From: Eledone cirrhosa
Lineage: Eukaryota
Length of the DNA: 64,000 bases
Direction of reading: 5' to 3'
Assembly: GCA_964016885.1 (NCBI GenBank)
Contig: OZ024741.1
Span: 102,548,001 to 102,612,000, forward strand
A program made the translations under genes and the position numbers. Under the pieces are notes generated by a model that was not told the origin of the DNA, searched no databases, and saw nothing but the letters and a program-made list of their open reading frames with translations. Position 1 is the first letter of the stretch; every line of letters begins with the position of its first letter. Shown piece after piece: positions 6,726 through 55,598 of this stretch.

Positions 6726-6774
<49 letters not shown>

Positions 6775-6779
<5 letters not shown>

Positions 6780-8887
6780 TCAGGTTATCAATAATGTAGT
6801 GATAATATATCGTTACGTTAGAGATGAACAGCGTACGTGCAGGTTTGCTCAACGAGTATAAATTATATTCTGGAGAAAATGTAGAAAGGATGAATATAAA
6901 ATGAAAGTGCTTTTTTTAAAAAAGGAATTTATTAGGTATTGACATATGTTTCTGTAACAGACTGAATACCTATGTATCGCTGCTTGCGTAATCATATAAT
7001 GTTAGCAAGTATTCGATAGCAAATGTATAATCAGTTATCACTTCTTCAGAGATTTTGGATAAATTGGATAAAATCAGAAACATTGAAGTATTTATATTAG
7101 TAATAGAGGAAGAAACAGAGGGGATAGTATATGACAGATGGTAAATTAATTTACTGCTAAACAAGTATATAATGGGTTTCTAATGAGAATACCATGAGTA
7201 AATCTAAATAAGAATGTTGGGAGTGCCAATTTTAATCTCTACTTGACCAACTGGACAGTGGACAGGGCTGGTCATTTGGTGCAGTAGTATTAATTATAAA
7301 GTGTCAATTGGGGAAGGGGGAGATTTCGATTGCTACTAAATAACATCAATGCTAGTAGCCAGCTGGTATATGCATTAGGGAATTGAATCAAGAAATCAGA
7401 AATCTCATTTTATCTATAGCAGTTTGTATTAAAAGGTAAATAATAGAAGAGTTGATAGAATTAAGACTAATAAAGAATGTTAATATCTATTTTGACAATC
7501 AAACGGGGATAGAGACAGGCGTTCAATCCTGGTAGTATTTATAATATGAAAATGTAGATTTTAAGCGATGGTTACAGTATAACGATCGCTCTATTCTGTT
7601 ATTTAATAAAATGTTTTTGGATTTCATAATACAAAATAATTCTACATTACATAATTTACAAAATTCCTGTCCATGGGAATATGGGGGAGCATAACCCATT
7701 TTAGGTGAAATTGTTGGTTATTTTCACGCAGCTGCCAAGCCTTGTCTGCGAGTGTTGTTACATAACGCTGGTTTTCATGTTTTATCGAGTAACGATGTCT
7801 ATAAAGGCGTGATTTGAAGGAGGTGGCTGTAGATCCCACATAGTACCACTTCTGTCTATCCGATTCGATAGTACATTTGTATACGATGTTGCGTTCAAGA
7901 CACTGATTGTTCAATGGACACATTCCTGGTTGGACACAGTTGCAATTATAATTTTGCGTTGTTGTATTGCCATGGATGGGTTGATGAGGTTGCTTATGTA
8001 GGACAGCGTTATGTAACAACACTCGCAGACAAGGCTTGGCAGCTGCGTGAAAATAACCAACAATTTCACCTAAAATGGGATATGCTCCCCCATATTCCCA
8101 TGGACAGGAATTTTGTAAATTATGTAATGTAGAATTATTTTGTATTATGAAATCCAAAAACATTTTATTAAATAACAGAATAGAGCGATCGTTATACTGT
8201 AACCATCGCTTAAAATCTACATTTTCATATTATAAATACTACCAGGATTGAACGCCTGTCTCTATCCCCGTTTGATTGTCAAAATAGATATTAACATTCT
8301 TTATTAGTCTTAATTCTATCAACTCTTCTATTATTTACCTTTTAATACAAACTGCTATAGATAAAATGAGATTTCTGATTTCTTGATTCAATTCCCTAAT
8401 GCATATACCAGCTGGCTACTAGCATTGATGTTATTTAGTAGCAATCGAAATCTCCCCCTTCCCTAATTGACACTTTATAATTAATACTACTGCACCAAAT
8501 GACCATCCCTGTCCACTGTCCAGTTGGTCAAGTAGAGATTAAAATTGGCACTCCCAACATTCTTATTTAGATTTACTCATGGTATTCTCATTAGAAACCC
8601 ATTATATACTTGTTTAGCAGTAAATTAATTTACCATCTGTCATATACTATCCCCTCTGTTTCTTCCTCTATTACTAATATAAATACTTCAATTTTTCTGA
8701 TTTTATCCAATTTATCCAAAATCTCTGAAGAAGTGACAACTTATTATACATTTGCTATCGAATACTTGCTAACATTATATGATTACGCAAGCAGCGATAC
8801 ATAGGTATTCAGTCTGTTACAGAAACATATGTCAATACCTAATAAATTCCTTTTTTAAAAAAAGCACTTTCATTTTATATTCATCCT

Positions 8888-8892
<5 letters not shown>
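6775..8892. mobile_element. Neptune-type PLE family C, palindromic insertion
   Basis: Inverted arms at about 6888-7770 and 8004-8892 with a GIY-YIG fragment in the centre. Both 3' ends abut (AT)n. Confidence 0.9.
7523..7990 (-). pseudogene. PLE GIY-YIG endonuclease remnant (family C)
   Basis: CNCVQPGMCPLNNQCLERNIVYKC..YYVGSTATSFKSRLYRH..TLADKAWQL, then after a frameshift FCKLCNVE..LLNNRIE..CNH. Confidence 0.9.
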
Positions 8893-8935
<43 letters not shown>

Positions 8936-17961: not shown

Positions 17962-18025
17962 CACAGAAACAAAATGGCGTAGGACAGAACAAAGGAGAGG
18001 CACAGAAACAAAGAAAGGAATCCAC

Positions 18026-18070
18026 AGTCACTGAAGAGGTCACAGAGTGTGTGACGAAAGAACTATGACT
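18026..18070 (+). ncRNA. Minimal type I hammerhead in the 5' pLTR
   Basis: AGTCA-CTGAAGA-G-GTCACA-GAGTG-TGTGAC-GAAAG-AA-CTA-TGACT gives a 5-bp stem I, 6-bp stem II, 2-bp stem III and a CUA site. Confidence 0.8.
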
Positions 18071-18176
18071 ATATATAAACAACTATCTGGTTGTGGAACC
18101 AACCAACCAACCAGAAATTTATAAATTTATAAATTTATTATAAATTTATTATAATAAATTGAAGTGAAAGCAACTG

Positions 18177-21100
18177 GTGCGTGTGTTTCTTATTGGCAAC
18201 ATGACCCTCCCAAAGTATAACAATATCGGTTTCAACACACGATTTCAGATAAAGAATCTTGCTAAACAAATTCAGAAACGAAATATCGTAAGCCTTAGCC
18301 AGGCTAACAAGATACTGAAAACCACCATGTTCTGTTGTATACGAAAAACCATAACATCTCGACAACTACACTTCATAAAAGAATGTGCCTCGTCCCGCGT
18401 TTACACCAACACCATCAACACCGACGTAAGAAGATTACAACTCACCAAAAAACAAGCAGATAGGCTAAAACGAACACTAATTCTAAACATAAAAAAGAAG
18501 ATCTATAGAGAATTAAGTCATCAAGAAAAACATAAGCGTAACCTAATACAAGAAATAGCTAGGATCACCACACCAAGAGAGAAACTAATATTTATAAGCC
18601 TTATACGTCCTGAAGAACAGTACATTACTCAAGAATGTGATAAGCACTTTAACAAGAAACTAAAGTGGCTTAAGCAGATAAAGCTAAATCAGGATACTAT
18701 AGAGAATACCAATAGATATCCCGACAAAATTGACGGTATAAATATGGCCGACACCTCATTAACGGATGAGTTCAACAACAACAACAACACAAATATATAC
18801 GGTAACACAATAATAGATGACGATGAGTTATCGGTATTATGTCTGCCCCCGCGGTTTGCGACATTCAAGAAGGTAAATATGATTAGTTATCTGTCAGAAA
18901 TAGAAAAATCATTTACAAAACTACGCTGGAGCCTCAAAAACAAAAACAAAAACAAAAGCAACAATATACGCACACACATATACAACACACATCCCAACAA
19001 CAACAGACACACAGACACAAACAACAATAACAACAACACACACACCAACAACATCAACAATAATAACATACCCAGAAACAACAACAACAGACACGCAGAC
19101 ACAAACAACAATAACAACACACACAACAATAATAACACACACGGAGACAACAACAACACACATCAACAACAGCACACATCAACAACAACAACACACACAC
19201 ATTCAATGCCTCTCACCACCACCACAATCTTAACAAACACACAGACACAGAAAACAAGTAATGAGAGTAGCACAGAAATCACAGAAATAAGGGAAATTAA
19301 TAGGATTAAAAGGAGTAGGGAGACTAAGGACAAAGAAAATAACCAAGACGAACACACAGACACACAAAATAGGGTAGATAACAACAATGAGCCAGTGGAA
19401 AGAGACAGGAGTAATTATGAGAGACATAGAAATAACCACGAGGCTGTTGGTGGAAATAGAAATAGAAACAACACAACTAACAATAACAATAGCACTAGTA
19501 CACATAAAGCAGCAGCCTGGAACTCTACGTTTTATAATCCCTCCGATAAATCGTTCGACCTGCGACGAGTCCACGCCATGACTCTACCATTTAACAAACG
19601 CACGCAATTGCCGTCGCAGGTCGATGAACAAACAGAAGCACAATTTAGTATAGCTAGATCCGAACTTAGAAATATTATAGAACAGTATAGCAAGAAGCAT
19701 AATAGAATGGAGGCCCAGCAACTGGGAGAAAAATTTGCAAATGGCTTGCGTAAGCTCATGCAGCGCTCGCGTAATGGAGAGATAGCATGCTTTCCAACAG
19801 ACAAGTCTGGCAGAATGTCGGTTGACAGCCTGCCAAACTACATCCAGGCAATGCAACCCCACATCACTAACACAAGAGAGGTAACACCACAGGAGCATGA
19901 GGATAGAGAAAAAGCCCTCAATGCCCATATGGTGATGTGGACGAATATAATGCAGCCCAACAAAAGGACTGCCAACAACTTCCAGGCCTGGAACAATGAC
20001 GTGCCGGCGTTGTATGGGCTTCGAAAAGACCATAAAACGGGCAGTGACCCTGTCGCGGGACCACCAACACGGCCAGTCTGTGGAGCTAACATTGCTAGTA
20101 ACTACAGACTGTCCTACTTCCTCTCCCTGATCATACGCCCCATCATTGAAATGTCTCCAGATGTATGTGACAGCACGGAGGACCTCCACAGCAGAATCGG
20201 CGTGGGTAACCGATCTAGGGACCTAACAAACTGCATAATAGGTAGTATGGATGTTGTGTCCCTGTATCCATCTATTGACGTGGATTTTGCTGTGGAGAAG
20301 TGCGTAGAAATGATCAGTGAGAGCAATGTTGAGTTCCGTGGGATTGATACCAGTGAGCTGGGACTCCTACTTAAACTTACCTATAGTAATAATTACCTAG
20401 ACACATATGACCTTAGCAACCTGTGCCCTACAAGACCAGCAAGAGGCAGACCACCTACCATTACATCAATGGCCAAGAAAACCCACACAGATAGGTGGAA
20501 CGGGTGGACCAGAGCCATACGGACACCCGAAAACCACGATGAACTGAAGAAAAGGATTGCACATGCGGTAGGGGCCAGCATAAAACTAACCCTTAAGGAA
20601 CATATGTTCAAATTTAATAGAAAAACATATGCCCAAGAGGAAGGAGCAGCCATTGGTGTTAGCATTGCAGGCGACATAGCTAACTTATTCATGGTATGGT
20701 GGGACAGTAGACTTAAACTTAAACTTAAAGAACAATTAGAAGACCCCTTAACCCTGATAATGTACTCCCGCTACGTTGATGATATAAACATCGTAGTTAA
20801 GACACCCCCACTAGAGAACAGTCAGGAACTAGAGAAGAACACAATGGAAAGCATCCAGCAAATAGCTAAGTCCATCCACCAGAGCATTAGAGTTACTATA
20901 GACTACCCAAGTAAACACCCCAACCATCGATTATCTGTACTAGACACAGAGCTCTGGTTAGATACCATTAATAACAAAAAACAAATCCTCCATTCCAATT
21001 ATGCCAAACCCATGACTTCCAAACATCTGATCCACCGAAACTCGGCCGTTTCGGACCATACCAAAATCAACATACTGATTGCGGATTTGGTACGGGTGAT

Positions 21101-21689
21101 GAGAAATGTGTCCTGCATGTGCAACCCCGAAGAACTAGAGAGACACATACAACACTTCATCCACCGTATGCAGTTCTCTGGCTACAATCAGAGAGATAAA
21201 ATCAGAGTGTATAGAGGAGCCAGAACTAAATGGGAAAAAATGGTAAATAATGACATAAATGGGACCTGCCCCTTGTATAGGAGCAAATTTTGGAATAGAA
21301 TAGAAAGAACTAGGAACAAGGCTAATAGAATAAACTCATGGTATGATAGCAATAAATACCAGAGTGTAATGTTCATCGATACAACCCCTAGAGGTGAATT
21401 AGCTTACAAATTTAGAAGGGCCCTAAATAAACATAAACTCAATATTAAGATAGTAGAAAGACCAGGTACCTCCGTAAAAACACTTATTAGCAAGACATAC
21501 CCTTTTCAAAGACCCTCATGTATAGATAAGAAATGTATAACCTGTAAAATAAGCCCCCATATTAACTGTAAAACTAGAAATGTAGTGTATAGCATAAGAT
21601 GTACTGAAGGACAATGTAGAGACAACAATATAGTGTACATAGGTGAGACAGCTCGTAGTGTAGGGGAACGGATAAATGAACACTGGTGA
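18177..21689 (+). CDS. PLE polyprotein: reverse transcriptase plus C-terminal GIY-YIG endonuclease, prematurely stopped in this copy (first ATG at 18201)
   Basis: Motifs: PTDKSG, LYGLRKDHK, RPVC, GSMDVVSLYPSI, QEEGAAIG, RYVDD, a CxxxxCxxC..C linker, and VVYSIRC..YIGETAR..ERINEH. TGA at 21687 is CGA in sister copies. A further TAA at about 21741 and a 1-nt deletion at about 21851 follow. Confidence 0.93.
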   Translation: MRVFLIGNMTLPKYNNIGFNTRFQIKNLAKQIQKRNIVSLSQANKILKTTMFCCIRKTITSRQLHFIKECASSRVYTNTINTDVRRLQLTKKQADRLKRTLILNIKKKIYRELSHQEKHKRNLIQEIARITTPREKLIFISLIRPEEQYITQECDKHFNKKLKWLKQIKLNQDTIENTNRYPDKIDGINMADTSLTDEFNNNNNTNIYGNTIIDDDELSVLCLPPRFATFKKVNMISYLSEIEKSFTKLRWSLKNKNKNKSNNIRTHIYNTHPNNNRHTDTNNNNNNTHTNNINNNNIPRNNNNRHADTNNNNNTHNNNNTHGDNNNTHQQQHTSTTTTHTHSMPLTTTTILTNTQTQKTSNESSTEITEIREINRIKRSRETKDKENNQDEHTDTQNRVDNNNEPVERDRSNYERHRNNHEAVGGNRNRNNTTNNNNSTSTHKAAAWNSTFYNPSDKSFDLRRVHAMTLPFNKRTQLPSQVDEQTEAQFSIARSELRNIIEQYSKKHNRMEAQQLGEKFANGLRKLMQRSRNGEIACFPTDKSGRMSVDSLPNYIQAMQPHITNTREVTPQEHEDREKALNAHMVMWTNIMQPNKRTANNFQAWNNDVPALYGLRKDHKTGSDPVAGPPTRPVCGANIASNYRLSYFLSLIIRPIIEMSPDVCDSTEDLHSRIGVGNRSRDLTNCIIGSMDVVSLYPSIDVDFAVEKCVEMISESNVEFRGIDTSELGLLLKLTYSNNYLDTYDLSNLCPTRPARGRPPTITSMAKKTHTDRWNGWTRAIRTPENHDELKKRIAHAVGASIKLTLKEHMFKFNRKTYAQEEGAAIGVSIAGDIANLFMVWWDSRLKLKLKEQLEDPLTLIMYSRYVDDINIVVKTPPLENSQELEKNTMESIQQIAKSIHQSIRVTIDYPSKHPNHRLSVLDTELWLDTINNKKQILHSNYAKPMTSKHLIHRNSAVSDHTKINILIADLVRVMRNVSCMCNPEELERHIQHFIHRMQFSGYNQRDKIRVYRGARTKWEKMVNNDINGTCPLYRSKFWNRIERTRNKANRINSWYDSNKYQSVMFIDTTPRGELAYKFRRALNKHKLNIKIVERPGTSVKTLISKTYPFQRPSCIDKKCITCKISPHINCKTRNVVYSIRCTEGQCRDNNIVYIGETARSVGERINEHW

Positions 21690-22006
21690 GACCTTCAAGA
21701 TAGTAAAGAATCATCTGTACTCTACCAACATGCTAAAATATAACACAAGGGTAAATTAGAGAACATAGAAATACAAATAGAATCTACACACAGAAAAGAC
21801 GCAATGTTTAGACAAATTACAGAGGCAATAAACATAAAAGAATTACAACCAAATTAAATAGAAAATATGAGTGGAACAGCAACATCACAACTTACAATTA
21901 AGGACAAAATGAAAACACACACACACATAGAACAAACAACCAACCAGTAACATGTAAATAAACAAATAAATAAATGAACATAAACACACACAGACACCCG
22001 GATGTG

Positions 22007-22055
22007 GCGCATGCGCAGACTGAGCACACAACACACACACAGAAACAAAATGGCG
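22007..22055 (+). promoter_or_regulatory. Candidate pLTR promoter motifs: NRF1-type GCGCATGCGC and YY1-type CAAAATGGCG
   Basis: Both consensus matches lie 50-100 nt upstream of the HHR. A variant copy has AAGATGGCG (52921), which still fits YY1. Confidence 0.4.
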
Positions 22056-22101
22056 TAGGACAGAACAAAGGAGAGGCACAGAAACAAAGAAAGGAATCCA
22101 C

Positions 22102-22146
22102 AGTCACTGAAGAGGTCACAGAGTGTGTGACGAAAGAACTATGACT
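22102..22146 (+). ncRNA. Minimal type I hammerhead in the 3' pLTR
   Basis: Identical to 18026-18070. Confidence 0.8.
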
Positions 22147-22356
22147 ATATATAAACAACTATCTGGTTGTGGAACCAACCAACCAACCAGAAATTTATAA
22201 ATTTATAAATTTATTATAAATTTATTATAATAAATTGAAGTGAAAGCAACTGGTGCGTGTGTTTCTTATTGGCAACATGACCCTCCCAAAGTATAACAAT
22301 ATCGGTTTCAACACACGATTTCAGATAAAGAATCTTGCTAAACAAATTCAGAAACG

Positions 22357-22390
<34 letters not shown>

Positions 22391-24314: not shown

Positions 24315-24374
<60 letters not shown>

Positions 24375-24409
24375 ATATAAGATCAAAAGATGGTTAAAGG
24401 AGTTCCATG

Positions 24410-24480
24410 TATTTTATTATGCGCATTTCAAAAACAAACATCATCAAGCAATAATATTTGTGTTTTCATCAGATAAAACA
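24410..24480 (-). ncRNA. Type I hammerhead (family A)
   Basis: Reverse complement of the 26826-26896 motif. Confidence 0.75.
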
Positions 24481-26825
24481 GGAGAACATGATATGAAGGC
24501 TAAAAAAACACTTGTGGATAGTGCAGTTTTAAATCAACATATGAAAAGTGGTTTTAGATTGATGTGTGATATTGGGAAAAAATATTTTATTTAGAGAGGG
24601 GGGGGTTGGAATGGATGAAAAGGGAAGGAGATGAGAGGGAGAGATGGGTGATAGAGAGAAAGAGATAGTTTTTATAACTGAGAGGAGATATATTTTTTAC
24701 ATAGAGAGGTTGAAAACCGTTGGAAGATACTGTATAAATTAAAAATTTTGAAAATTAACGAAGGGAGGATATGTGCGAGGAAAAAATATTTTATTTAGGG
24801 AGGGGGGGATGAAAAAAGGGGGAGGAGATGAGAGTGAAGGTGGAGAGGGAGAGATGGGTGATAGAGAGAAAGAGATAGTTTTTATAACTGAGAAAAAGAT
24901 ATATTGTTTTAACATAGAGAGGTTGGGAACCGTTGGAAGATAATGTATAAATTAAAGGAATTTGAAAATTAACGAAGGGAAATTATGTATGAAGATAGAG
25001 AGAAAAAAATAATAATTGTGGATGAATATTCTAACGTCAAAAAAAGAAATGTATATATTGTGGCAATTTCAAAATTAACGAAGAGAAAAATTATTAAGGT
25101 TTGTGTGTAGAAGGATTTGAGAAAAATAATGTGAAGTTAAAGTTTGTATATTGGTTGAATTGATAATATATGCGAATAAAGAGTTAATATGTATTAATAA
25201 TGAGTTCGTTGATGGGGAGAAAAAAATAATAAATTAAGGATGAAATTGAGATTAAAAAGATTTATGATAGAGAGAAAAAATAATAATGATTGCGGATGAA
25301 TATTGTTTATGTTATGATTTTACAAGGTGAAGATAGAATGAGGGTAATGAGTAAACAAGTATTATAGAGTGTATAATGCCCTTTAAAGTAAGGTAGATGG
25401 GTATATTTTAAAGAGGTGTATGTATATGTGCCTTTGAGAAAAGATTCTAAATTGATAAAGAATTGAATATTAACTGTATACTTTGTGAAAAGTTCTATGG
25501 AATTTATGCAGGCAGATAGAAAACAAATCTGTGCGTCTATTTATTATAGAATCTAGGTTAGAGATAATGGTAAATTTTTCATTTAGGCAGAGATTACAGA
25601 TTTTAGATAGAGAGCTGTTCAAGTATGAGGATGCAGAAGAAATCTTCTTCCAAAAGATGGTATATTTAATGTTTTTGTCTTTTAAGGACCATATGAGTTC
25701 TGAGAGAGCAGTGTTAGTTCTTTTAAGTTTGTATTTGAAAGATGAATGATGATTATAGAGACGAGCTTTAAAAGAGATTTGTTTTCTATCTGCCTGCATA
25801 AATTCCATAGAACTTTTCACAAAGTATACAGTTAATATTCAATTCTTTATCAATTTAGAATCTTTTCTCAAAGGCACATATACATACACCTCTTTAAAAT
25901 ATACCCATCTACCTTACTTTAAAGGGCATTATACACTCTATAATACTTGTTTACTCATTACCCTCATTCTATCTTCACCTTGTAAAATCATAACATATAC
26001 AATATTCATCCGCAATCATTATTATTTTTTCTCTCTATCATAAATCTTTTTAATCTCAATTTCATCCTTAATTTATTATTTTTTTCTCCCCATCAACGAA
26101 CTCATTATTAATACATATTAACTCTTTATTCGCATATATTATCAATTCAACCAATATACAAACTTTAACTTCACATTATTTTTCTCAAATTCTTCTGCAC
26201 ACAAACCTTAATAATTTTTCTCTTCGTTAATTTTGAAATTACCACAATATATACATTTCTTTTTTTGACGTTAGAATATTCATCCACAATTATTATTTTT
26301 TTCTCTCTATCTTCATACATAATTTCCCTTCGTTAATTTTCAAATTCCTTTAATTTATACATTATCTTCCAACGGTTCCCAACCTCTCTATGTTAAAACA
26401 ATATATCTTTTTCTCAGTTATAAAAACTATCTCTTTCTCTCTATCACCCATCTCTCCCTCTCCACCTTCACTCTCATCTCCTCCCCCTTTTTTTCACCCC
26501 CCCTCCCTAAATAAAATATTTTTTCCTCGCACATATCCTCCCTTCGTTAATTTTCAAAATTTTTAATTTATACAGTATCTTCCAACGGTTTTCAACCTCT
26601 CTATGTAAAAAATATATCTCCTCTCAGTTATAAAAACTATCTCTTTCTCTCTATCACCCATCTCTCCCTCTCATCTCCTTCCCTTTTCATCCTTTCCAAC
26701 CCCTCCCCTCTCTAAATAAAATATTTTTTCCCAATATCACACATCAATCTAAAACCACTTTTCATATGTTGATTTAAAACTGCGCTATCCACAAGTGTTT
26801 TTTTAGCCTTCATATCATGTTCTCC

Positions 26826-26896
26826 TGTTTTATCTGATGAAAACGCAAATATTATTGCATGATGATGTTTGTTTTTGAAATGCGCATAATAAAATA
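26826..26896 (+). ncRNA. Type I hammerhead (family A)
   Basis: TGTTTTAT-CTGATGA-AAAC GCAAATATTA..TGATGTTTGT TTTT-GAAA-TGCGC-ATA-ATAAAATA gives an 8-bp stem I and palindromic stem III ATGCGCAT. Confidence 0.78.
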
Positions 26897-27138
26897 CATG
26901 GAACTCCTTTAACCATCTTTTGATCTTATATTATGCATACTCCAGTCCTACAAACTGTAGAGTGCTTCTTATCCGATATCTGCATTGCTTTATTGTACTA
27001 CAATAAAACTCACCTCCTACATATATATATATATATATGAAGTAATTCCATCGGAAAAGTCCAGGAAAAAAGAGTGCTCTATGTATGCAACAGAGCTTAA
27101 TTATTATTATTATGTAATAAACAACATAAGGCAATTAT

Positions 27139-27196
27139 TCCATTTACCAGTGGTTTCTTAAAAGCAAAAGGTTTTGCTTTCAATCTTCAGAATGAA
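27139..27196 (-). ncRNA. Type I hammerhead (family B, distal, GUA site)
   Basis: Minus strand TTCATT-CTGAAGA-TTGAAAGCAAAA-CC-TTTTGCTTTTAA-GAAACC-ACT-GGTA-AATGGA. Confidence 0.85.
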
Positions 27197-27483
27197 AAAT
27201 CCTGGTTTGTTTATTGAATATGGATTCTAAAAACAAAAATGCAATCTATATGAAAGTGAGGCTGGAAAAGGGAGAAGGAAAGGAAAAATAAAATAAAACT
27301 ACACATGCAAACACACACAAAAAAACACAAAAGCATACTTACACACACATACATATATACACATATATATAAATGCACGCATACACATATACATATACAC
27401 ACATATATATATATATATATAAAGAGCGTACACCTACACACACATACACATATATACACACATATACACATACATACATTCAT

Positions 27484-27521
<38 letters not shown>

Positions 27522-27599
27522 ACACACACACACACACACATACACACACACATACATATCCATACATATATATATATATATATACATATATACATATAT

Positions 27600-27630
<31 letters not shown>

Positions 27631-28012
27631 TGTGTGTGTACAAGCATACACATACACACACACATATATATACACACATACATACATTCACACAAACATA
27701 CAACGTACATACATACACATACATGAATGCACTCCACTACATATTAACACACGCAAATAAATATAAGAAAAAAATATATAAATATATATTAACAAATTTT
27801 TGACAGCGATACATGCCCCAGCTAACAGGACAGACACGCGTGGTAAGTAATACACACAAAAGCACATATACATACGTACGAAATAGTAAACACATACACA
27901 CACTCTCACACATAAATATACATATACAAATACATAAACACGTACATACACATACATACACAAACACGTACACGTATACAATATAAACACACACATGTAT
28001 ATGTAATTATAT

Positions 28013-28059
<47 letters not shown>

Positions 28060-28505
28060 CAAAAATATAAAAATATAAATGCACACACACATATAAATAC
28101 GTAAACACACATATACATACATAGCTAAACAATTATACACATGCAAATACGTATATATCAAAAGAACGCACAACCAAATACAAACACACACACATACACA
28201 CCCACACACAAACCCACACATACATAAAAATAAATAAATACACACGCACACATATACATACATACACATACATATACACATATATACAAATACATATATA
28301 CATATATACATATACATATATATATACACATATATATATAAATAGATATATATACACACATACACGTACACATACACACATGCATACACATACACACACA
28401 CATATACATGTGTGTATGTGTAAAGCTCAGTATTAGATAAGACAAATGAACCTTACATAAACGTATATATAGTAGTAAAGTAATAAAGCCATACAAGGCA
28501 ATTAA

Positions 28506-28563
28506 TCCATTCACCAGAGGTTTCTTAAAAGCAAAAAAAGTTTCCTTCAATCTTCAGAATGAA
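28506..28563 (-). ncRNA. Hammerhead paralog (family B, proximal, GUG site)
   Basis: Same fold as 27139-27196, but the triplet is GTG and stem II is degraded. Confidence 0.6.
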
Positions 28564-28695
28564 AAAAAAAAAAAAAAAAAAAGCCTGGTTTATCCACATA
28601 TACATACATATACACACACAAATATACAAATATATACACACATACAGACACGCACACACACATATATATATATACATATATATATATATACAGAC

Positions 28696-28728
<33 letters not shown>

Positions 28729-28860
28729 TATACATACATACATATATATATATATACATACACAAACATATACGTACATATATACATACGTACACATATA
28801 CATATATACACACAAAAATACATACACATACACATAGGTATGTGAAGGGCAAAACAAAAC

Positions 28861-29362
28861 AGTTCAAACCGTACGAGGATAAATCCAGGATGCAGTTGCA
28901 GGAAGCCGGATGAATGCCCATTGCAGGGTAAATGTAACACAAAATCTGTCGTTTATGAGGCTAAGATAACGCCAGTTATCAACAACCAGCCAGCCAGAAG
29001 CGAGCGATATGTCGGTATGACCCAGGACAGGTTTAAAACCAGATTTTACTCACATGTCGCTTCTTTTAAACACTCAGATAAACGAACATCAACGGCCCTC
29101 GCAAGTAAGGTATGGGATCTCAAGGATAGTAATATCCCGTACTCCATTGATTGGTCTATATTAGACCATTCGAGGGAGTACCAAAGGGGCACAAAGAATT
29201 GTTCTTTGTGTACCACAGAAAAGTATAGGATTTTTGCTAAACTTGAGAGCCACTTCCGCTTGCCTTAACTCTAAGACTGAGATCTTCAGATGCTGTCCTC
29301 ATCTGAAATCGCATCTGATCTGTAACTGGATTGACACTCCTACGATAAATCAACCGCCTTGA
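28861..29362 (+). pseudogene. PLE GIY-YIG endonuclease remnant (family B)
   Basis: GCSCRKPDECPLQGKCNTKSVVYEA..RYVGMTQDRFKTRFYSH..ALASKVWDLK..CSLCTTEKY, then after a frameshift LNSKTEIFRCCPH. Confidence 0.92.
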
Positions 29363-29634
29363 ACTCCTTCTCTGCTCTTTACTTTTGCTACGGTTTTTAT
29401 TTTGCTGCTTCTACCTTCTGTACTCTTGTATATTTAAAATTTTTTTTATCCCTTACCTCCCCTTATATTTTTACCTCCTCTTAGCCCCCCCCCCATATAT
29501 TCTTTTTGTTTTGCCCTTCACATACCTATGTGTATGTGTATGTATTTTTGTGTGTATATATGTATATGTGTACGTATGTATATATGTACGTATATGTTTG
29601 TGTATGTATATATATATATATGTATGTATGTATA

Positions 29635-29665
<31 letters not shown>

Positions 29666-29792
29666 GTCTGTATATATATATATATGTATATATATATATG
29701 TGTGTGTGCGTGTCTGTATGTGTGTATATATTTGTATATTTGTGTGTGTATATGTATGTATATGTGGATAAACCAGGTTTTTTTTTTTTTTT

Positions 29793-29850
29793 TTCATTCT
29801 GAAGATTGAAGGAAACTTTTTTTGCTTTTAAGAAACCTCTGGTGAATGGA
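29793..29850 (+). ncRNA. Hammerhead paralog (family B, proximal, GUG site)
   Basis: TTCATT-CTGAAGA-TTGAAGG..CTTTTAA-GAAACC-TCT-GGTG-AATGGA. Confidence 0.6.
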
Positions 29851-31892
29851 TTAATTGCCTTGTATGGCTTTATTACTTTACTACTATATATACGTTTATG
29901 TAAGGTTCATTTGTCTTATCTAATACTGAGCTTTACACATACACACATGTATATGTGTGTGTGTATGTGTATGCATGTGTGTATGTGTACGTGTATGTGT
30001 GTATATATATATATTTATATATATATGTGTATATATATATATGTATATGTATATATGTATATGTATATATGTGTATATGTATGTGTATGTATGTATATGT
30101 GTGCGTGTGTATTTATTTATTTTTATGTATGTGTGGGTGTGTGTGTGTGTATGTGTGTGTGTTTGTATTTGGTTGTGCGTTCTTTTGATATATACGTATT
30201 TGCATGTGTATAATTGTTTAGCTATGTATGTATATGTGTGTTTACGTATTTATATGTGTGTGTGCGTTTATATTTTTATATTTTTGTATGTATGTATATA
30301 TATATATATATAATGTAGGAGGTGAGTTTTATTGTAGTACAATAAAGCAATGCAGATATCGGATAAGAAGCACTCTACAGTTTGTGGGACTGGAGTATGC
30401 ATAATATAAGATCAAAAGATGGTTAAAGGTGTTCCATATATTTTATTATGCGCATTTCAAAAACAAACATCATCAAGCAATAATATTTGCGTTTTCATCA
30501 GATAAAACAGGAGAACATGATATGAAGGCTAAAAAAAACACTTGTTGATAGTGCAGTTTTAAATCAACATATGAAAAGTGGTTTTAGATTGATGTGTGAT
30601 ATTGGGAAAAATATTTTATTTAGAGAGGGGGCGGGGGGAAGGATGAAAAGGGAAGGAGATGAGAGGGAGAGATGGGTGATAGAGAGAAAGAGATAGTTTT
30701 TATAACTGAGAGGAGATATATTTTTTACATAGAGGGGTTGAAAACCGTTGGAAGATACTGTATAAATTAAAAATTTTGAAAATTAACGAAGGGAGGATAT
30801 GTGCGAGGAAAAAATATTTTATTTAGGGAGGGTGGGGTGGAAAGGATGAAAAAAAGGGGGGAGGAGATGAGAGTGAAGGTGGAGAGGGAGAGATGGGTGA
30901 TAGAGAAAAAGAGATAGTTTTTATAACTGAGAAAAAGATATATTGTTTTAATATAGAGAGGTTGGGAACCGTTGGAAGATAATGTATAAATTAAAGGAAT
31001 TTGAAAATTAACGAAGGGAAATTATGTATGAAGATAGAGAGAAAAAAATAATAATTGTGGGTGAATATTCTAACGTCAAAAGAAGAAATGTATGTATTGT
31101 GGCAATTTCAAAATTAGCGAAGAGAAAAATTGTTAAGGTAGAAGGATTTGAGAAGTGTAGAAGGATTTGAGAAAAATAATGTGAAGTTAAAGTTTGTATA
31201 TTGAATTGATATGTATTAATAATGAGTTCGTTGATGGGGAGAAAAAAATAATAATAAATTAAGGATGAAATTGAGATTAAAAAGATTTATGATAGAGAGA
31301 AAAAATAATAATGATTGCGGATGAATATTCAAAATGTCAAAAACAAATGTTATTATTTTACGAGAAGATAGAATGAGGGTAATGAGTAAACAAGTATTAT
31401 AGAGTGTATAATGCCCTTTAAAGTAAGGTAGATGGGTATATTTTAAAGAGGTGTATGTATATGTGCCTTTGAGAAAAGATTCTAAATTGATAAAGAATTG
31501 AATATTAACTGTATACTTTGTGAAAAGTTCTATGGAATTTATGCAGGCAGATAGAAAACAAATCTGAGCGTCTATTTATTATAGATTCTAGGTTAGAGAT
31601 AATGGTAAATTTTTCATTTAGGCAGAGATTACAGATTTTAGATAGAGAGCTGTTCAAGTATGAGGATGCAGAAGAAATCTTTTTCCAAAAGATGTTATAT
31701 TTAATGTTTTTGTCTTTTAAGGACCATATGAGTTCTGAGAGAGCAGTGTTAGTTCTTTTAAGTTTGTATTTGAAAGATGAATGATGATTATATAGACGAG
31801 CTTTAAAAGAGGTGGAAGTGGAGCCAAAATAGGTGAAGGAATTGGTGCTAGTTATAATTTTACATTCATAAATTAAGTTTTTATCGAGGCAC

Positions 31893-32264
31893 TTAATTTA
31901 TGAATGTAAAATTATAACTAGCACCAATTCCTTCACCTATTTTGGCTCCACTTCCACCTCTTTTAAAGCTCGTCTCTATAATCATCATTCATCTTTCAAA
32001 TACAAACTTAAAAGAACTAACACTGCTCTCTCAGAACTCATATGGTCCTTAAAAGACAAAAACATTAAATATAACATCTTTTGGAAAAAGATTTCTTCTG
32101 CATCCTCATACTTGAACAGCTCTCTATCTAAAATCTGTAATCTCTGCCTAAATGAAAAATTTACCATTATCTCTAACCTAGAATCTATAATAAATAGACG
32201 CTCAGATTTGTTTTCTATCTGCCTGCATAAATTCCATAGAACTTTTCACAAAGTATACAGTTAA
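31893..32264 (+). pseudogene. GIY-YIG endonuclease fragment (family A), mirrored at 31505-31891 on minus
   Basis: LIYECKIITSTNSFTYFGSTSTSFKARLYNH..ICNLCLNEK..INRRSDLFSICLH. The frame is open but has no start codon, so it is absent from the ORF track. Confidence 0.88.
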
Positions 32265-33256
32265 TATTCAATTCTTTATCAATTTAGAATCTTTTCTCAA
32301 AGGCACATATACATACACCTCTTTAAAATATACCCATCTACCTTACTTTAAAGGGCATTATACACTCTATAATACTTGTTTACTCATTACCCTCATTCTA
32401 TCTTCTCGTAAAATAATAACATTTGTTTTTGACATTTTGAATATTCATCCGCAATCATTATTATTTTTTCTCTCTATCATAAATCTTTTTAATCTCAATT
32501 TCATCCTTAATTTATTATTATTTTTTTCTCCCCATCAACGAACTCATTATTAATACATATCAATTCAATATACAAACTTTAACTTCACATTATTTTTCTC
32601 AAATCCTTCTACACTTCTCAAATCCTTCTACCTTAACAATTTTTCTCTTCGCTAATTTTGAAATTGCCACAATACATACATTTCTTCTTTTGACGTTAGA
32701 ATATTCACCCACAATTATTATTTTTTTCTCTCTATCTTCATACATAATTTCCCTTCGTTAATTTTCAAATTCCTTTAATTTATACATTATCTTCCAACGG
32801 TTCCCAACCTCTCTATATTAAAACAATATATCTTTTTCTCAGTTATAAAAACTATCTCTTTCTCTCTATCACCCATCTCTCCCTCTCCACCTTCACTCTC
32901 ATCTCCTCCCCCCTTTTTTTCATCCTTTCCACCCCACCCTCCCTAAATAAAATATTTTTTCCTCGCACATATCCTCCCTTCGTTAATTTTCAAAATTTTT
33001 AATTTATACAGTATCTTCCAACGGTTTTCAACCCCTCTATGTAAAAAATATATCTCCTCTCAGTTATAAAAACTATCTCTTTCTCTCTATCACCCATCTC
33101 TCCCTCTCATCTCCTTCCCTTTTCATCCCCCCCCCCCCCTCTCTAAATAAAATATTTTTCCCAATATCACACATCAATCTAAAACCACTTTTCATATGTT
33201 GATTTAAAACTGCACTATCAACAAGTGTTTTTTTTAGCCTTCATATCATGTTCTCC

Positions 33257-33327
33257 TGTTTTATCTGATGAAAACGCAAATATTGTTGCTTGATGATGTT
33301 TGTTTTTGAAATGCGCATAATAAAATA
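33257..33327 (+). ncRNA. Type I hammerhead (family A)
   Basis: Same motif as 26826-26896. Confidence 0.75.
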
Positions 33328-33411
33328 TATGGAACTCCTTTAACCATCTTTTGATCTTATATTATATATATATATATATATATATTTGCTAAAACAATCT
33401 CTATACGTCTC

Positions 33412-48714: not shown

Positions 48715-50515
<1,801 letters not shown>

Positions 50516-50608
50516 TAATAATAATAATAATAATAAAATTGAAGACTAAAATCCAAAGAGGGCTCGATAAGGAAAATATATATCAAATATATAAGAACCG
50601 TAGAACAA

Positions 50609-52226
50609 ATATTTATTAAAATAACAGATTAAAGTTTAAGCAAAGAATCGCTGCTTTCACCCTTAACGGGATCTTCTGAAACTAACAAAGTCAATCTGTA
50701 AACGCAGAACTGGATATTTCAAAAAACGTTGCAGCCGGAGGAAGACAGGAAGACGATACTTTGGTTCGTGGTAACGCTCGCTAGCAAAGAACGGGAAAAA
50801 ACGAATAATACGTCATTAATAGGAGCGGTGAAAAACAATTACGCGCAAAGACAGAACCACGTTTATGGTATAAAAGAGGTCGTAGACTAATGTTCTCTTA
50901 GGTAGTGCATAGAGACGTTCTCTGGCAATGAACGAAAAAACGAAGATAATAAGTCGTATGTGGAGCGTGGAGGACGTCACTTTCAGCTTATATCTGGAGT
51001 CTAAAAGATAACCACACCCAATATAAGTTACACTGGGAGATCCTAGCTAGGGCTAAATCGTATAACGGAAATAAAAGACCATGTGACCTCTGCGCCGCTG
51101 AGGCCCTGGAAATACTCTACGCCACAGACCACATCTTAAACAAAAAATCTGAGGCAATTTCGGCTTGTAAACATAAATTGCACAAAACTTTCCTGTATTA
51201 CAGCCCCACGTTATACACTAACGGATAGCACGACCTATACGTGGATATTTTACGTCTTGATGTGGGAGCTAAGTATATGTTTTGTTTATTCCTTTACTTA
51301 TTTGCATAGGTAAGTATATATTACCCGTATGTTTTGTGAAGGTATGTATACTTTCTCGTACGTATATTTGACTGTTATGGCGTATAATTTTTACATAGTC
51401 TGGTATTTAGGGTTTGGCTATGTGTATACGGGAGTTTCGCGTCTGCGTGAGTATGCAGGTTCGTACGTATGGTGGGTGTGTGTATATGTGTACTTCTTGT
51501 TTTAGTTGACTTACGTCTCCGATCATTCGTGTATTTATATGTAGGTATGCGTGTGCGCTTGTTATATACGTATTTATTTACTTATATACATTGATATAAT
51601 TATTTATTTATTTGTACACAAGCATACACACACACACATATTTATATGTGCGTGGTTTTGTATACTTATGGTAAGGTTTTGCGTATGCTTGTGTATGTAC
51701 GTATCTGTATGTACGTATCTGTTTGCATGTATGTATTTATTTGTTTCTATTACTTCTGTATTGTATTTATTTACTTTCTTCTTAACTCTGTAGCGGAGAT
51801 TAATTTTAGTCTACGACTTCTGCTATACCATTTACGTGGTTTTGTCTTTGCGTGCTATTGTTCTCCACGCTCCACATACGACTTATTATCTTCGTTTTTT
51901 CGTTCATTGCCAGAGAACGTCTCTATGCACCACCTAAGAGAACATTAGTCTACGACCTCTTTTATACCATAAACGTGGTTCTGTCTTTGCGCGTAATTGT
52001 TTTTCACCGCTCCTATTAATGACGTATTATTCGTTTTTTCCCGTTCTTTGCCAACGAACGTTACCACGAACCAAAGTATCGTCTTCCTGTCTTCCTCCGG
52101 TTGCAACGTTTTTTGAAATATCCAGTTCTGCGTTTACAGATTGACTTTGTTAGTTTCAGAAGATCCCGTTAAGGGTGAAAGCAGCGATTCTTTGCTTAAA
52201 CTTTAATCTGTTATTTTAATAAATAT
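50609..52226. mobile_element. Neptune-type PLE family E, palindromic insertion
   Basis: Inverted arms at about 50609-50972 and 51863-52226. Plus-strand GIY-YIG C-terminus at 50974-51228 (TSLSAYIWSLK..WEIL..CDLCAAE..LNKKSE..CKH). Confidence 0.88.
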
Positions 52227-52229
52227 ATA

Positions 52230-52273
<44 letters not shown>

Positions 52274-52362
52274 ATGTATTTTGCAATACACTTTATGCTT
52301 AATTAAAAGCATTTTGAAGACCGTAAGCTATTGTTTTAAAGTAGTGACAAATTCACTCACTT

Positions 52363-52457
52363 TGATCTCAGCAAACAGGGGAGATAAGCCGACAAGACTT
52401 GTTTCGCTTTGGTTGAAGCTTATCAAGGCCAACTACCCCACCTGTCTACTGAGATCA
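52363..52457 (-). ncRNA. Extended type I hammerhead, U3-A8 core variant
   Basis: Minus strand TGATCTCAG TAG ACAGG TGGGGTAGTT GGCC-TTGATAA-GCTT CAACCA AAGC-GAAACAAG T CTTGTC-GGCT TATCTCC CCTGT TTG CTGAGATCA. The G.U pairs work only on this strand. Confidence 0.8.
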
Positions 52458-52678
52458 TTGATGTTATATTCTTATAGAAATCTAGTAAATAATCAGGAGC
52501 TGATTATGCAGAGCGGTTGTTGGTCAGGCAGAAATTAAAAATTAGAATTGGAGCTCTGAAATACCAATATATATATGGATGTATATATAATGTATTTTGC
52601 AATACACTTTATGCTTAATTAAAAGCATTTTGAAGACCGTAAGCTATTGTTTAAAAGTAGTGACAAATTCACTCACTT

Positions 52679-52772
52679 TGATCTCAGCAAACACGGAGAT
52701 AAGCCGACAAGACTTGTTTCGCTTTGGTTGAAGCTTATCAAGGCCAACTACCCCACCTGTCTACTGAGATCA
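52679..52772 (-). ncRNA. Extended type I hammerhead, U3-A8 core variant (second unit)
   Basis: Same core as 52363-52457. The predicted GUC cleavage sites (52706/52705 and 52391/52390) are 315 nt apart. Confidence 0.8.
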
Positions 52773-52907
52773 TTGATGTTATATTCTTATAGAAATCTAG
52801 TAAATAATCAGGAGCTGATTATGCAGAGCGGTTGTTGGTCAGGCAGAAATTAAAAATTAGAATTGGAGCTCTGAAATAGCAATATATATATGGATGTTTT
52901 TGTGTGT

Positions 52908-53233
52908 CACACAAAAAAACAAGATGGCGTAGGACAGAACAAAGGAGAGGCACAAAAAACAAAAAACAGAGAAAAGAATCCCCAGTCACTGAAGAGGTCA
53001 CAGAATGTGTGACGAAAGAACTTTGACAATATATAAACAACCATCTGGTTGTGGAACCAACCAGCCAACCGGAAATTTATAAATTCCTAAATTTATAAAT
53101 TTATTATAATAAATTGAAGTGAAAGCAACTGGCGCGTGTGTTTCTTATTGGCAACATGACCCTCCCAAAGTAAAACAATATCGGTTTCAACACACGTTTT
53201 CAGATAAAGAATCTTGCTAAACATATTCAGAAA

Positions 53234-53236
<3 letters not shown>
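52908..53236 (+). mobile_element. Solo pLTR of the Naiad-like PLE (diverged variant) with hammerhead at 52984-53027
   Basis: Aligns with 22036-22360. The HHR has a CUU triplet, and the 3' end abuts (AT)n. Confidence 0.9.
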
Positions 53237-53276
<40 letters not shown>

Positions 53277-53285
53277 TATATATAT

Positions 53286-55590
53286 ATTTCGTTTCTGAAT
53301 TTGTTTAGCAAGATTCTTTATCTGAAATCGTGTGTTGAAACCGATATTGTTATACTTTGGGAGGGCCATGTTGCCAACAAGAAACACACGCACCAGTTCC
53401 TTTCACTTCAATTTATTATATATTTCTGGTTGGTTGGTTGGTTCCACAACCAGATAGTTGTTTATATATAGTCATAGTTCTTTCGTCACACACTCTGTGA
53501 CCTCTTCAGTGACTGGGGATTCCTTTCTTTGTTTCTGTGCCTCTCCTTTGTTCTGTCCTACGCCATTTTGTTTCTGTGTGTTTGTTGTGTGCTCAGTCTG
53601 CACATGCGCCACATCCGGGTGTCTGTGTTTGTTTATGTTCATTTATTTATTTGTTTATTTACATGTTACTGGTTGGTTGTTTGTTCTATGTGTGTGTGTG
53701 TTTTCATTTTGCCCTTAATTGTAAGTTGTGATGTTGCTGTTCCATTCATATTTTCTATTTAATTTTGGTTGTAATTCTTTTATGTTTATGTAATTCTTCT
53801 AATTGTTCTTTAAGTTTAAGTCTACTGTCCCACCATACCATGAATAAGTTAGCTATGTCGCCTGCAATGCTAACACCAATGGCTGCTCCTTCCTCTTGGG
53901 CATATGTTTTCCATTTAATGGAAAAACATATGCCGAAGAGGAAGGAGCAGCCATTGGTGTTAGCATTGCAGGCGACATAGCTAACTTATTCATGGTATGG
54001 TGGGACAGTAGACTTAAACTTAAACTTAAAGAACAATTAGAAGACCCCTTAACCCTGATAATGTACTCCCGCTACGTTGATGATATAAACATCGTAGTTA
54101 AGACACCCCCACTAGAGAACAGTCAGGAACTAGAGAAAAACACAATGGAAAGCATCCAGCAAATAGCAAACTCCATCCACCAGAGCATTAGAGTTACTAT
54201 AGACTACCCAAGTAAACACCCCAACCATCGATTACCTGTACTAGACACAGAGCTCTGGTTAGATACCATTAACAACAAAAAACAAATCCTCCATTCCCAT
54301 TATGCCAAACCCATGACTTCCAAACATCTGATCCACCGAAACTCGGCCATTTCGGACCATACCAAAATCAACATACTGATTGCGGATTTGGTACGGGTGA
54401 TGAGAAATGTGTCCCGCATGTGCAACCCCGAAGAACTAGAGAGACACATACAACACTTCATCCACCGTATGTAGTTCTCTGGCTACAACCAGAGAGATAG
54501 AGTCAGAGTGTATAGAGGAGCCAGAACCAAATGGGAAAAAATGGTAAATAATGACATAAATGGGACCTGCCCCTTGTATAGGAGCAAATTTTGGAATAGA
54601 ATAGAAAGAACTAGGAACAAGGTTAATAGAATAAACTCATGGTATGATAGCCATAAATACCAGAGTGTAATGTTCATCAATACAACCCCTAGAGGTGAAT
54701 TAGCTTACAAATTTAGAAGGACCCTAAATAAACATAAACTCACTATTAAGATAGTAGAAAGACCAGGTACCTCCGTAAAAACACTTATTAGCAAGACATA
54801 CCCTTTTCAAAGACCCTCATGTATAGATAAGAAATGTATAACCTGTAAAATAAGCCCCCATATTAACTGTAAAACTAGAAATGTAGTGTATAGCATAAGA
54901 TGTACTGAAGGACAATGTAGAGACAAAAATATAGTGTACATAGGTGAGACAGCTCGTAGTGTAGGGGAACGGATAAATGAACACTGGCGAGACCTTCAAG
55001 ATAATAAAGAATCATCTGTACTCTACCAACATGCTAAAATAGAACATAAGGGTAAATTAGAGAACATAGAAATAAAAATAGAATCTACACACAGAAAAGA
55101 CGCAATGTTTAGACAAATTACAGAGGCAATAAACATAAAAGAATTACAACCAAAATTAAATAGAAAATATGAGTGGAACAGCAACATCACAACTTACAAT
55201 TAAGGACAAAATGAAAACACACACACACATAGAACAAACAACCAACCAGTAACATGTAAATAAACAAATAAATAAATGAACATAAACACACACAGACACC
55301 CGGATGTGGCGCATGCGCAGACTGAGCACACAACACACACACAGAAACAAAATGGCGTAGGACAGAACAAAGGAGAGGCACATAAACAAAGAAAGGAATC
55401 CCCAGTCACTGAAGAGGTCACAGAGTGTGTGACGAAAGAACTATGACTATATATAAACAACTATCTGGCTGTGGAACCAACCAACCAACCAGAAATTTAT
55501 AAATTTATAAATTTATAAATATATAATAAATTGAAGTGAAAGCAACTGGTGCGTGTGTTTCTTGTTGGCAACATGGCCCTCCCAAAGTAT

Positions 55591-55598
<8 letters not shown>
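53286..55598. mobile_element. Second composite Naiad-like PLE insertion: inverted 3' end, fold-back, then 5'-truncated forward copy
   Basis: Minus pLTR and 3' end at 53286-53790, a short inverted RT piece at about 53791-53915, then forward RT-GIY-YIG and pLTR. HHRs lie at 53470-53514 (-) and 55404-55448 (+). Confidence 0.93.
53914..55203 (+). pseudogene. PLE RT C-terminal part plus complete GIY-YIG domain
   Basis: ORFs 53896-54474 and 54508-55203 are in the same frame, separated by a CAG>TAG stop. This copy supplies the intact C-terminus (..EHWRDL..LYQH..RQITEAINIKELQPKLNRKYEW). Confidence 0.93.

Follow-up and report, generated by a model that had tools for sequence, protein, structure and literature searches.

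Penelope-type insertion footprint of a retrozyme family in Eledone cirrhosa and the probable origin of a retrozyme/pLTR chimera

A retrozyme family in the genome of Eledone cirrhosa carries a PLE tail at one outer end, is arranged in two opposed arms and is inserted in (TA)n, and on this family-wide footprint it is very probably mobilised by machinery of the Penelope-like element (PLE) type. The initial annotation had drawn PLE mobilisation from a single locus in the window (the whole stretch of 64,000 nt analysed here; contig OZ024741.1, positions 102,548,001 to 102,612,000), where a retrozyme dimer is fused to a pLTR. The proposal stands on the family as a whole, in which 32 of 32 intact insertions are tailed at one end, and not as a deduction from the chimera junction, which alone is weak evidence for PLE mobilisation and, as a single junction, is no proof of copying in trans by a PLE. 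The chimera itself was probably produced by two separate Penelope-type insertions into one (TA)n tract, joined with loss of the intervening bases.

Results

Copies of the retrozyme were located with a hammerhead-derived 26-mer, which has 687 exact matches in the 3.0-Gb host genome compared with 0 for a control. The first 100 matches, which all fall on contig C1, yielded a 50-locus set (48 newly taken plus L019 and L020, with the duplicates L017 and L021 left out) that omits copies mutated in the 26-mer. Head-to-head two-arm arrays account for 35/50 loci and one-armed copies for 15/50 (7 untailed, 7 tailed and 1 broken). A PLE tail is present at exactly one outer end in every one of the 32 intact two-arm loci (p=2e-10); in each of them the two outer ends lie at unit positions ~305 and ~272-279, the second being 26-33 nt (up to ~40) further along. 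The exception, L053, is untailed at both ends and comes from a similarity-selected set outside the 50 loci. Most canonical outer ends are flanked by (TA)n or AT repeats. A tail at one end has been described as unique to PLEs, for which in vitro work identified the tail as the stretch between two RT start sites, with both strands cut and extended (PMC11167929).

The centres of two-arm loci are random and asymmetric and mostly overlap by 0-9 nt, indicating that the arms are two separately primed cDNAs. Fold-back copying was rejected as the usual source of the second arm, since only 2/35 centres lie within 5 nt of symmetric. The first 30 loci had suggested that arm ends accumulate immediately ahead of the predicted cleavage site, an idea that was likewise discarded because the unbiased set did not show it, its centres being evenly spread. 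Over all available two-arm loci, both arms share the same haplotype in 424/427 site comparisons, against a between-locus discordance of 26%, so the arms normally derive from one RNA or source, or else have been homogenised. One-armed loci are no older than two-armed loci (p=0.32), and slow later deletion is therefore not the main route to a single arm. Their inner ends fall in the AT-rich segment of the unit in 8/15 cases versus 16/70 two-arm centres (Fisher p=0.023, post hoc), a preference that annealing of the cDNA end to (TA)n would produce. Long arrays also occur, among them a one-armed array of about 26 units and 8.2 kb (L150:1237-9480) and a single-haplotype arm of 2.9 kb (L145).

The description of the repeat in the window as a retrozyme dimer was confirmed: it comprises two tandem 316-nt units of a non-coding, dispersed repeat, 98.75% identical to each other and both on the minus strand. 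Unit 1 (52263..52578, 316 nt) differs from its nearest relatives by one rare substitution, while unit 2 (52579..52897) carries two rare substitutions and one 1-nt deletion and terminates within the AT-rich segment of the unit. Constrained folding predicts a type I hammerhead in each, with the core UUGAUAA..GAAA..UC and stems I-III; the motifs lie on the minus strand at 52370..52440 (U3:A8 core variant, predicted cut 52391/52390) and at 52689..52755 (predicted cut 52706/52705). The fold costs about 6 kcal/mol relative to the local minimum. U3:A8 replaces C3:G8 in 88/88 loci and is a natural variant known from Schistosoma PLEs (PMC4209133), and a compensatory stem III swap (AU to UA) is present in 5 loci, probably of a single lineage. 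Rfam returned a weak HH9-like match in each unit on the minus strand (E about 0.1, under the gathering score); all its HH9 matches were sub-threshold, and its miRNA matches were palindromes and microsatellites. The circular monomer is predicted to be highly self-paired (z -6.2), and multi-unit arms of one haplotype fit a predicted circular RNA template. A search of public runs turned up no RNA data set containing the repeat. We conclude that the repeat is a credible retrozyme, for which self-cleavage and circles are predicted. An older family, RZ2, is 69% identical to it and retains the identical U3:A8 core; a first look for RZ2 gave 2761 candidates.

The chimera's PLE had been called Naiad-like, and this assignment does not agree with its coding sequence. 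The long copy of the family in the window, of subfamily 'a' (17963..22360, plus strand), has an open frame at 18168-21689 of 1173 codons in which RT is followed by a C-terminal GIY-YIG domain, with stop codons within the EN end. The frame contains DKS at 545, YVDD at 869, CIDKKCITC at 1118 and its single YIG at 1157, after the YVDD; its only CxC, at 983, is downstream of the RT core. A minimal hammerhead core is present in all six pLTRs of the family found by motif scan. Naiads have an N-terminal EN, a CxC linker that connects it to RT, a DKA motif and no canonical hammerhead (PMC8557442). Since the EN follows RT, the motif is DKS and not DKA, no CxC lies between EN and RT and the pLTR has a hammerhead core, the element is not a Naiad, although it has (TA)n preference, inverted arms and a tail in common with them (PMC8557442). 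By motif it appears to be Neptune-like, with a C-terminal EN and a CX2-5CxxC linker (C-IDKK-C-IT-C). A Pfam search of the long ORF gave no match, and comparison with the Atlas returned only RT/GIY-YIG look-alikes. Other PLE fragments in the window carry the Hydra linker CxCx5C; Hydra PLEs, to which that linker belongs, also target (TA)n (PMC8557442).

The chimera pLTR is about 90% identical to the long copy by BLAST. The long copy was nevertheless rejected as its source, being of a different subfamily and separated by 13 substitutions from the majority sequence of the chimera's subfamily. Subfamily 'b', to which the chimera pLTR belongs, has longer coding copies of its own, and the nearest relative of the chimera pLTR among the best 40 of 2018 candidates is 5-6 substitutions away.

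The chimera block, known from the assembly, consists of the retrozyme dimer (minus strand) and the pLTR (plus strand) placed back-to-back. The sequence check bore out that (AT)n is lacking between them and that both outer ends enter AT repeats. On the left, the untailed ('short') outer end of the retrozyme, at unit position ~305, merges with a (TA)15 target tract at 52234..52263. On the right, the pLTR enters (AT)18 at 53236, within a target tract spanning 53236..53286. Sequence comparison assigns the pLTR arm (52908..53236, plus strand) to subfamily 'b'; a motif scan places its minimal hammerhead core from 52989 on the plus strand, and the arm has an untailed end site at ~53181 followed by a 55-nt tail reaching the tailed end at 53236. 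Unlike the head-to-head norm of the family, the locus has a single retrozyme arm. L146, a near twin of this arm, likewise begins untailed and extends over two units and a further 29 nt; it is flanked by (AT)n left and right.

The chimera sits in a pile-up of insertions comprising, in order, AT satellite, element F, chimera and two-armed PLE. The left neighbour 'F' (50609..52226) is a separate palindromic element with 367-bp arms, judged Hydra-type from a coding copy in L167. The right neighbour (53285..55598) is a separate two-armed insertion of PLE subfamily 'a', whose left arm runs from the centre through a ~118-nt stub and then jumps to the 3' end. The degenerate AT satellite (48805-50539) at the left edge of the cluster contains a 200-base N gap (49287-49486). 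Additional palindromic PLE insertions in (TA)n are found in the window at 24374-27022, 30313-33364, 6774-8895 and 27039-30294; these contain C-terminal GIY-YIG fragments, whose linker is of Hydra type wherever it was read. Two of the families have hammerhead cores, and the tails are longer, at about 90-115 nt.

The fold-back GTTTTTGTGTG-T-CACACAAAAAAAC lies exactly at 52896-52920, and its likeness to other PLE palindrome centres was borne out, as it is the ordinary centre of the pLTR family. It had also been taken for the retrozyme/pLTR junction itself; the position is right, but the fold-back lies entirely in PLE sequence. A query of 52850-52960 matched end to end at the chimera locus only, and from 52895 onward it matched many pLTR-only palindromes (both among the best 40 of 682 candidates). 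Because pLTR copies elsewhere match from 52895 onward, the retrozyme/PLE boundary is placed at 52895-52897, and because pLTR-only palindromes have the fold-back as their standard centre, we regard it as wholly a PLE property. What the retrozyme abuts, with an overlap of 1-3 nt, is the remnant of an inverted pLTR arm, a stub of 9-13 nt; junction and stub together span 52895..52907 on the minus strand and form part of the family-standard palindrome centre. The stability of the junction hairpin is no better than that of shuffles (z -0.51). On the retrozyme side the junction falls in the AT-rich segment of the unit.

Stubs of ~7-66 nt are joined straight to other DNA or to (AT)n in further pLTR copies (L032, L034, L035, L037, L039, L041, L042, L095 and L100), the first seven of which came from a query that selects stubs; in L035 the stub is followed by (AT)n. 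Selection on the right arm alone gave 29 pLTR-b loci. Counted by hand, 25 of them could be read: 14 are two-armed, 3 have a stub and then a jump, 6 are one-armed against other DNA and 2 are one-armed in (AT)n. The normal left arm is thus missing in 11/25 readable loci.

Additional independent retrozyme/pLTR chimeras were sought, and two, L125 and L229, were found. A combined retrozyme and pLTR query gave no second chimera among the best 40 of 3178 candidates, which reflects a limit of ranking because gapped patterns recovered the two further fusions. These patterns, which cover the genome for exact motifs no more than 420 nt apart (fusions with wider gaps lie outside), identified 3 fusions with the chimera's PLE family (the chimera locus, L125 and L229) and 1 with a Hydra-type pLTR (L253). 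In the 50-locus set, one-armed retrozymes are joined to the pLTR of the chimera's PLE family (L125), the RT regions of PLEs X and Y (L132, L143), the hammerhead repeat G (L114, L118, L019), (AT)n (L138, L146) and 7 other partners, and a LINE is the partner in L025, from the similarity-selected set. A known family lies within 600 bp of 20/100 retrozyme sides, and 6 of these are the chimera's PLE family. A rough estimate using guessed landing fractions gives 1.3-3.7 fusions expected by chance versus 3 observed.

These results do not single out the chimera's PLE as the helper, as had been proposed, since the same type of fusion occurs with Hydra-type, X and Y PLEs, repeat G, a LINE and other DNA, and since the retrozyme is without detectable similarity to that PLE: compared with 13 element sequences from the window and the loci, including the chimera's PLE family, it gave no match at E<0.1. 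The possibility that the retrozyme is itself the pLTR of PLE family X was rejected at L132, where X terminates in its own terminal sequence. Repeat G, likewise a (TA)n element, is arranged in tandem and inverted copies, has a tail of ~50 nt and possesses a canonical hammerhead core (for example L019:1-1390, L169:8100-8690 and L170:7520-7805). Several loci join it to the retrozyme or to the pLTR.

The outer ends of the fusions show a bias. Complementary ends, one tailed and one untailed, were found in 5/5 fusions with a PLE partner (chimera, L125, L132, L229 and L253), a count that leaves out L143, where the partner end is unclassifiable. The chimera combines an untailed retrozyme end with a tailed pLTR end, an arrangement expected 50% of the time by chance. 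Taking in three G fusions (L149, L039 and L118) brings the count to 7/8 (p=0.03-0.035, post hoc), the like-ended case being L118 with both ends tailed, and when the ambiguous L019 is counted it is 7/9 (p=0.09). Neighbouring insertions have random polarity (6 like and 5 unlike by hand count), and polarity determined by the site is accordingly not supported as the cause of end complementarity.

Individual loci differ in how the parts are joined. In L229:1326-1855 (C12, ~9.2388 Mb) a tailed retrozyme arm meets a 5'-truncated PLE arm with an untailed end through 6 nt of microhomology after a 10-nt retrozyme-derived insert, and the PLE stub is absent; we regard it as the cleanest candidate for use of two templates. 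L253:1350-1897 (C3, ~154.78 Mb) consists of a retrozyme arm, a near-symmetric 79-nt retrozyme stub, a perfect fold-back stub and the Hydra-type pLTR. In L114 a complete G palindrome is joined by its outer end to the retrozyme centre, and in L106 the pLTR centre is joined to a retrozyme outer end. The pLTR-arm/retrozyme block of L106 occurs twice, about 2.45 kb apart (L106:808-4900), by local or assembly duplication. L163:903-1995 contains a pLTR-b arm nested in an older RZ2 retrozyme; the site shows a duplication of 8-9 bp and lacks (AT)n.

Rare substitutions were used to compare the ages of fused parts. At the chimera the retrozyme carries 3/631 (0.48%) and the pLTR 4/327 (1.22%; p=0.19). Rare substitutions are fewer on the retrozyme side in 4/4 fusions (four loci, p=0.10), including L125, where the parts are near equal (2.15% vs 2.24%). 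The ages of the families overlap (0-4.6% for retrozyme loci and 0.9-3.8% for pLTR-b). An apparent difference between family medians (0.63% vs 1.87%) was discarded as a selection effect, the unbiased retrozyme median being 1.6%.

Discussion

Metazoan non-LTR retrozymes are tandem, non-coding units of 150-450 bp with one type I hammerhead each, and PLEs were proposed as their helpers by Cervera & de la Pena in 2020 and by Li, Clavereau & Pollet in 2026 (PMC7229834; 10.64898/2026.07.22.740005). The evidence so far has been co-occurrence and pLTR similarity, with the mechanism called open (10.64898/2026.07.22.740005). The Eledone repeat resembles these retrozymes in being tandem and non-coding, with a type I hammerhead per unit and coexisting PLEs. 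It departs from the published retrozymes in that its copies lie in (TA)n as two arms placed head to head, one of them ending in a PLE tail. The word 'inverted' is absent from the main text of PMC7229834, and 'tail', 'palindrom' and 'head-to' are absent from the available part of the 2026 preprint (10.64898/2026.07.22.740005). In titles, abstract openings and portions of main texts we found no description of retrozyme insertions with inverted arms or a tail, and none of retrozyme/PLE fusions. Unlike in the Xenopus cases described in that part of the preprint (10.64898/2026.07.22.740005), no pLTR homology to any PLE of the window was found for the Eledone retrozyme. Its U3:A8 core is a further difference from the published retrozymes.

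The PLE of the chimera is similar to C-terminal-EN PLEs in its order of RT then GIY-YIG, its CX2-5CxxC linker and minimal-hammerhead pLTR, and in its inverted 5'-truncated arm, tail at one end and (TA)n targets (PMC8557442). It differs from the PLEs in the available portion of Craig et al. 2021 in having a tail of 55 nt instead of 30-40 and in the abundance of pLTR-only palindromes (PMC8557442). In target-primed reverse transcription by the Poseidon element PAc, studied by Frangieh et al. 2024, two RT starts match the tailed/untailed end pair of the retrozyme (PMC11167929). The portion of that report available to us describes a cis template only, with no retrozyme template or two-RNA product (PMC11167929). 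That all 32 intact insertions are tailed at one end and have arms of a single haplotype is evidence, direct and genomic, of the class of enzyme, and the defined start sites at unit positions ~305 and ~272-279 can be used in the existing in vitro assay.

Our preferred explanation of the chimera is sequential insertion. In this scheme a PLE endonuclease would have cut (TA)n beside a pre-existing pLTR insertion, and RT, primed at the left end, would have copied two unit lengths from retrozyme RNA, the template probably being circular or multimeric. The resulting cDNA would then have been joined at its end to the resected far side through 1-3 nt of microhomology within the stub of the pLTR left arm. 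The same product would be expected had the insertions come in the reverse order, or had two complete palindromes later lost the sequence between them, and the helper would be some C-terminal-EN, (TA)n-targeting PLE of the Eledone cirrhosa genome. Sequential insertion is favoured because one-armed loci are common for both parts (15/50 retrozyme and 11/25 readable pLTR-b loci), because fusion partners are varied (X, Y, the Hydra-type P2, G, LINE and other DNA), because the structures of L114 and L253 are hard to make from two cDNAs and because the number of fusions is near chance (3 vs 1.3-3.7). It is further favoured by the single haplotype of normal arms (424/427), by L146 and L035, in which a twin of the retrozyme arm and a pLTR stub each border (AT)n, by the nesting of a pLTR-b arm in an older retrozyme in L163 and by the smaller number of rare substitutions in the retrozyme part (4/4 fusions). 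Complementary ends in fusions, where neighbours have random polarity, speak against it, and it is less well supported in that the age differences between parts are not significant and the family ages overlap.

The initial annotation had proposed that two templates were used at one target break, and the evidence on this is divided: the end complementarity (7/8, p=0.035) supports it, while the stubs, the one-armed precedents, the single-haplotype arms and the chance-level count speak against it. We consider such a single integration possible but doubtful. A PLE protein, predicted to be dimeric, would break the two strands of (TA)n; one RT would copy retrozyme RNA from the untailed start and the other pLTR RNA from the tailed start. 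The cDNA ends would be joined, and the stub would arise by self-priming of the pLTR cDNA, as has been proposed for inverted junctions of Penelope (PMC3846280). The end counts (5/5 with PLE partners, 7/8 overall) have a likelihood of 0.26-0.39 if half to three quarters of the fusions are single events and 0.03 if none are, although the test is post hoc and covers 8 loci. Parts of each fusion do not differ significantly in age, and L229 is a clean case with 6-nt microhomology and no PLE stub. There is also precedent, as a PLE, predicted to act as a dimer, cuts and extends both strands in vitro from two RNA start sites (PMC11167929), and L1 yields insertions of opposite orientation from two different transcripts at one break (PMC11702581). 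The L1 cases are de novo insertions by an unrelated enzyme with a known empty site, whereas the chimera is known from the insertion-bearing assembly. Against two templates, no two-arm retrozyme locus has two haplotypes, the 3/427 discordant sites being best read as point mutations, with the caveat that the retrozyme family contributes little to the RNA pool and that arms could be homogenised. In addition, both ends of L118 are tailed, the joins of L114 and L106 involve an outer end, and a near-identical source for the pLTR was not found among the 40 best candidates described above. It is tentatively conceivable that a PLE protein dimer loads two RNAs and writes them from both sides of one break, always one tailed and one untailed; if so, the chimera, L125, L132, L229 and L253 would be fossil two-template integrations, and retrozymes would ride PLE particles of several clades. 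With the fusion loci it can be tested cheaply whether two RNAs are open to use by a single PLE particle.

A template switch, in which RT moved from the retrozyme RNA to a pLTR RNA at its 5' end, or else worked from a chimeric RNA that already existed, would give a left arm of retrozyme plus stub. This would account for the stub, the 1-3 nt overlap and the complementary ends, and jumps within arms do occur in pure retrozyme arrays (L002, L123 and L137). We consider it improbable, as identical stubs on unrelated DNA (L032, L034, L037, L041, L095 and L100) make a second RNA unneeded and the junction was found once among the best 40 of 682 candidates, which also argues against a chimeric master that has spread. 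An assembly error in this palindrome- and (AT)n-rich cluster is very unlikely. The N gap in the AT satellite of the cluster would fit an error, as would the lack of a junction-bridging record in four public runs, but those runs are unitigs or RAD-seq, maybe from other individuals or species, and are uninformative on the junction. Four other retrozyme/PLE fusions have different breakpoints, and both parts of the chimera have private substitutions and clean target ends.

Two minor observations concern relatives of these elements. A low-depth 284-nt contig of run X5 (organism C) is one letter off the retrozyme (window 52300-52583) and may represent a close relative, contamination or transfer. The frame of the long PLE contains an Asn/Thr/His-rich low-complexity insert at about 18900-19200, which recalls the N-rich inserts reported for rotifer Penelopes (PMC3846280).
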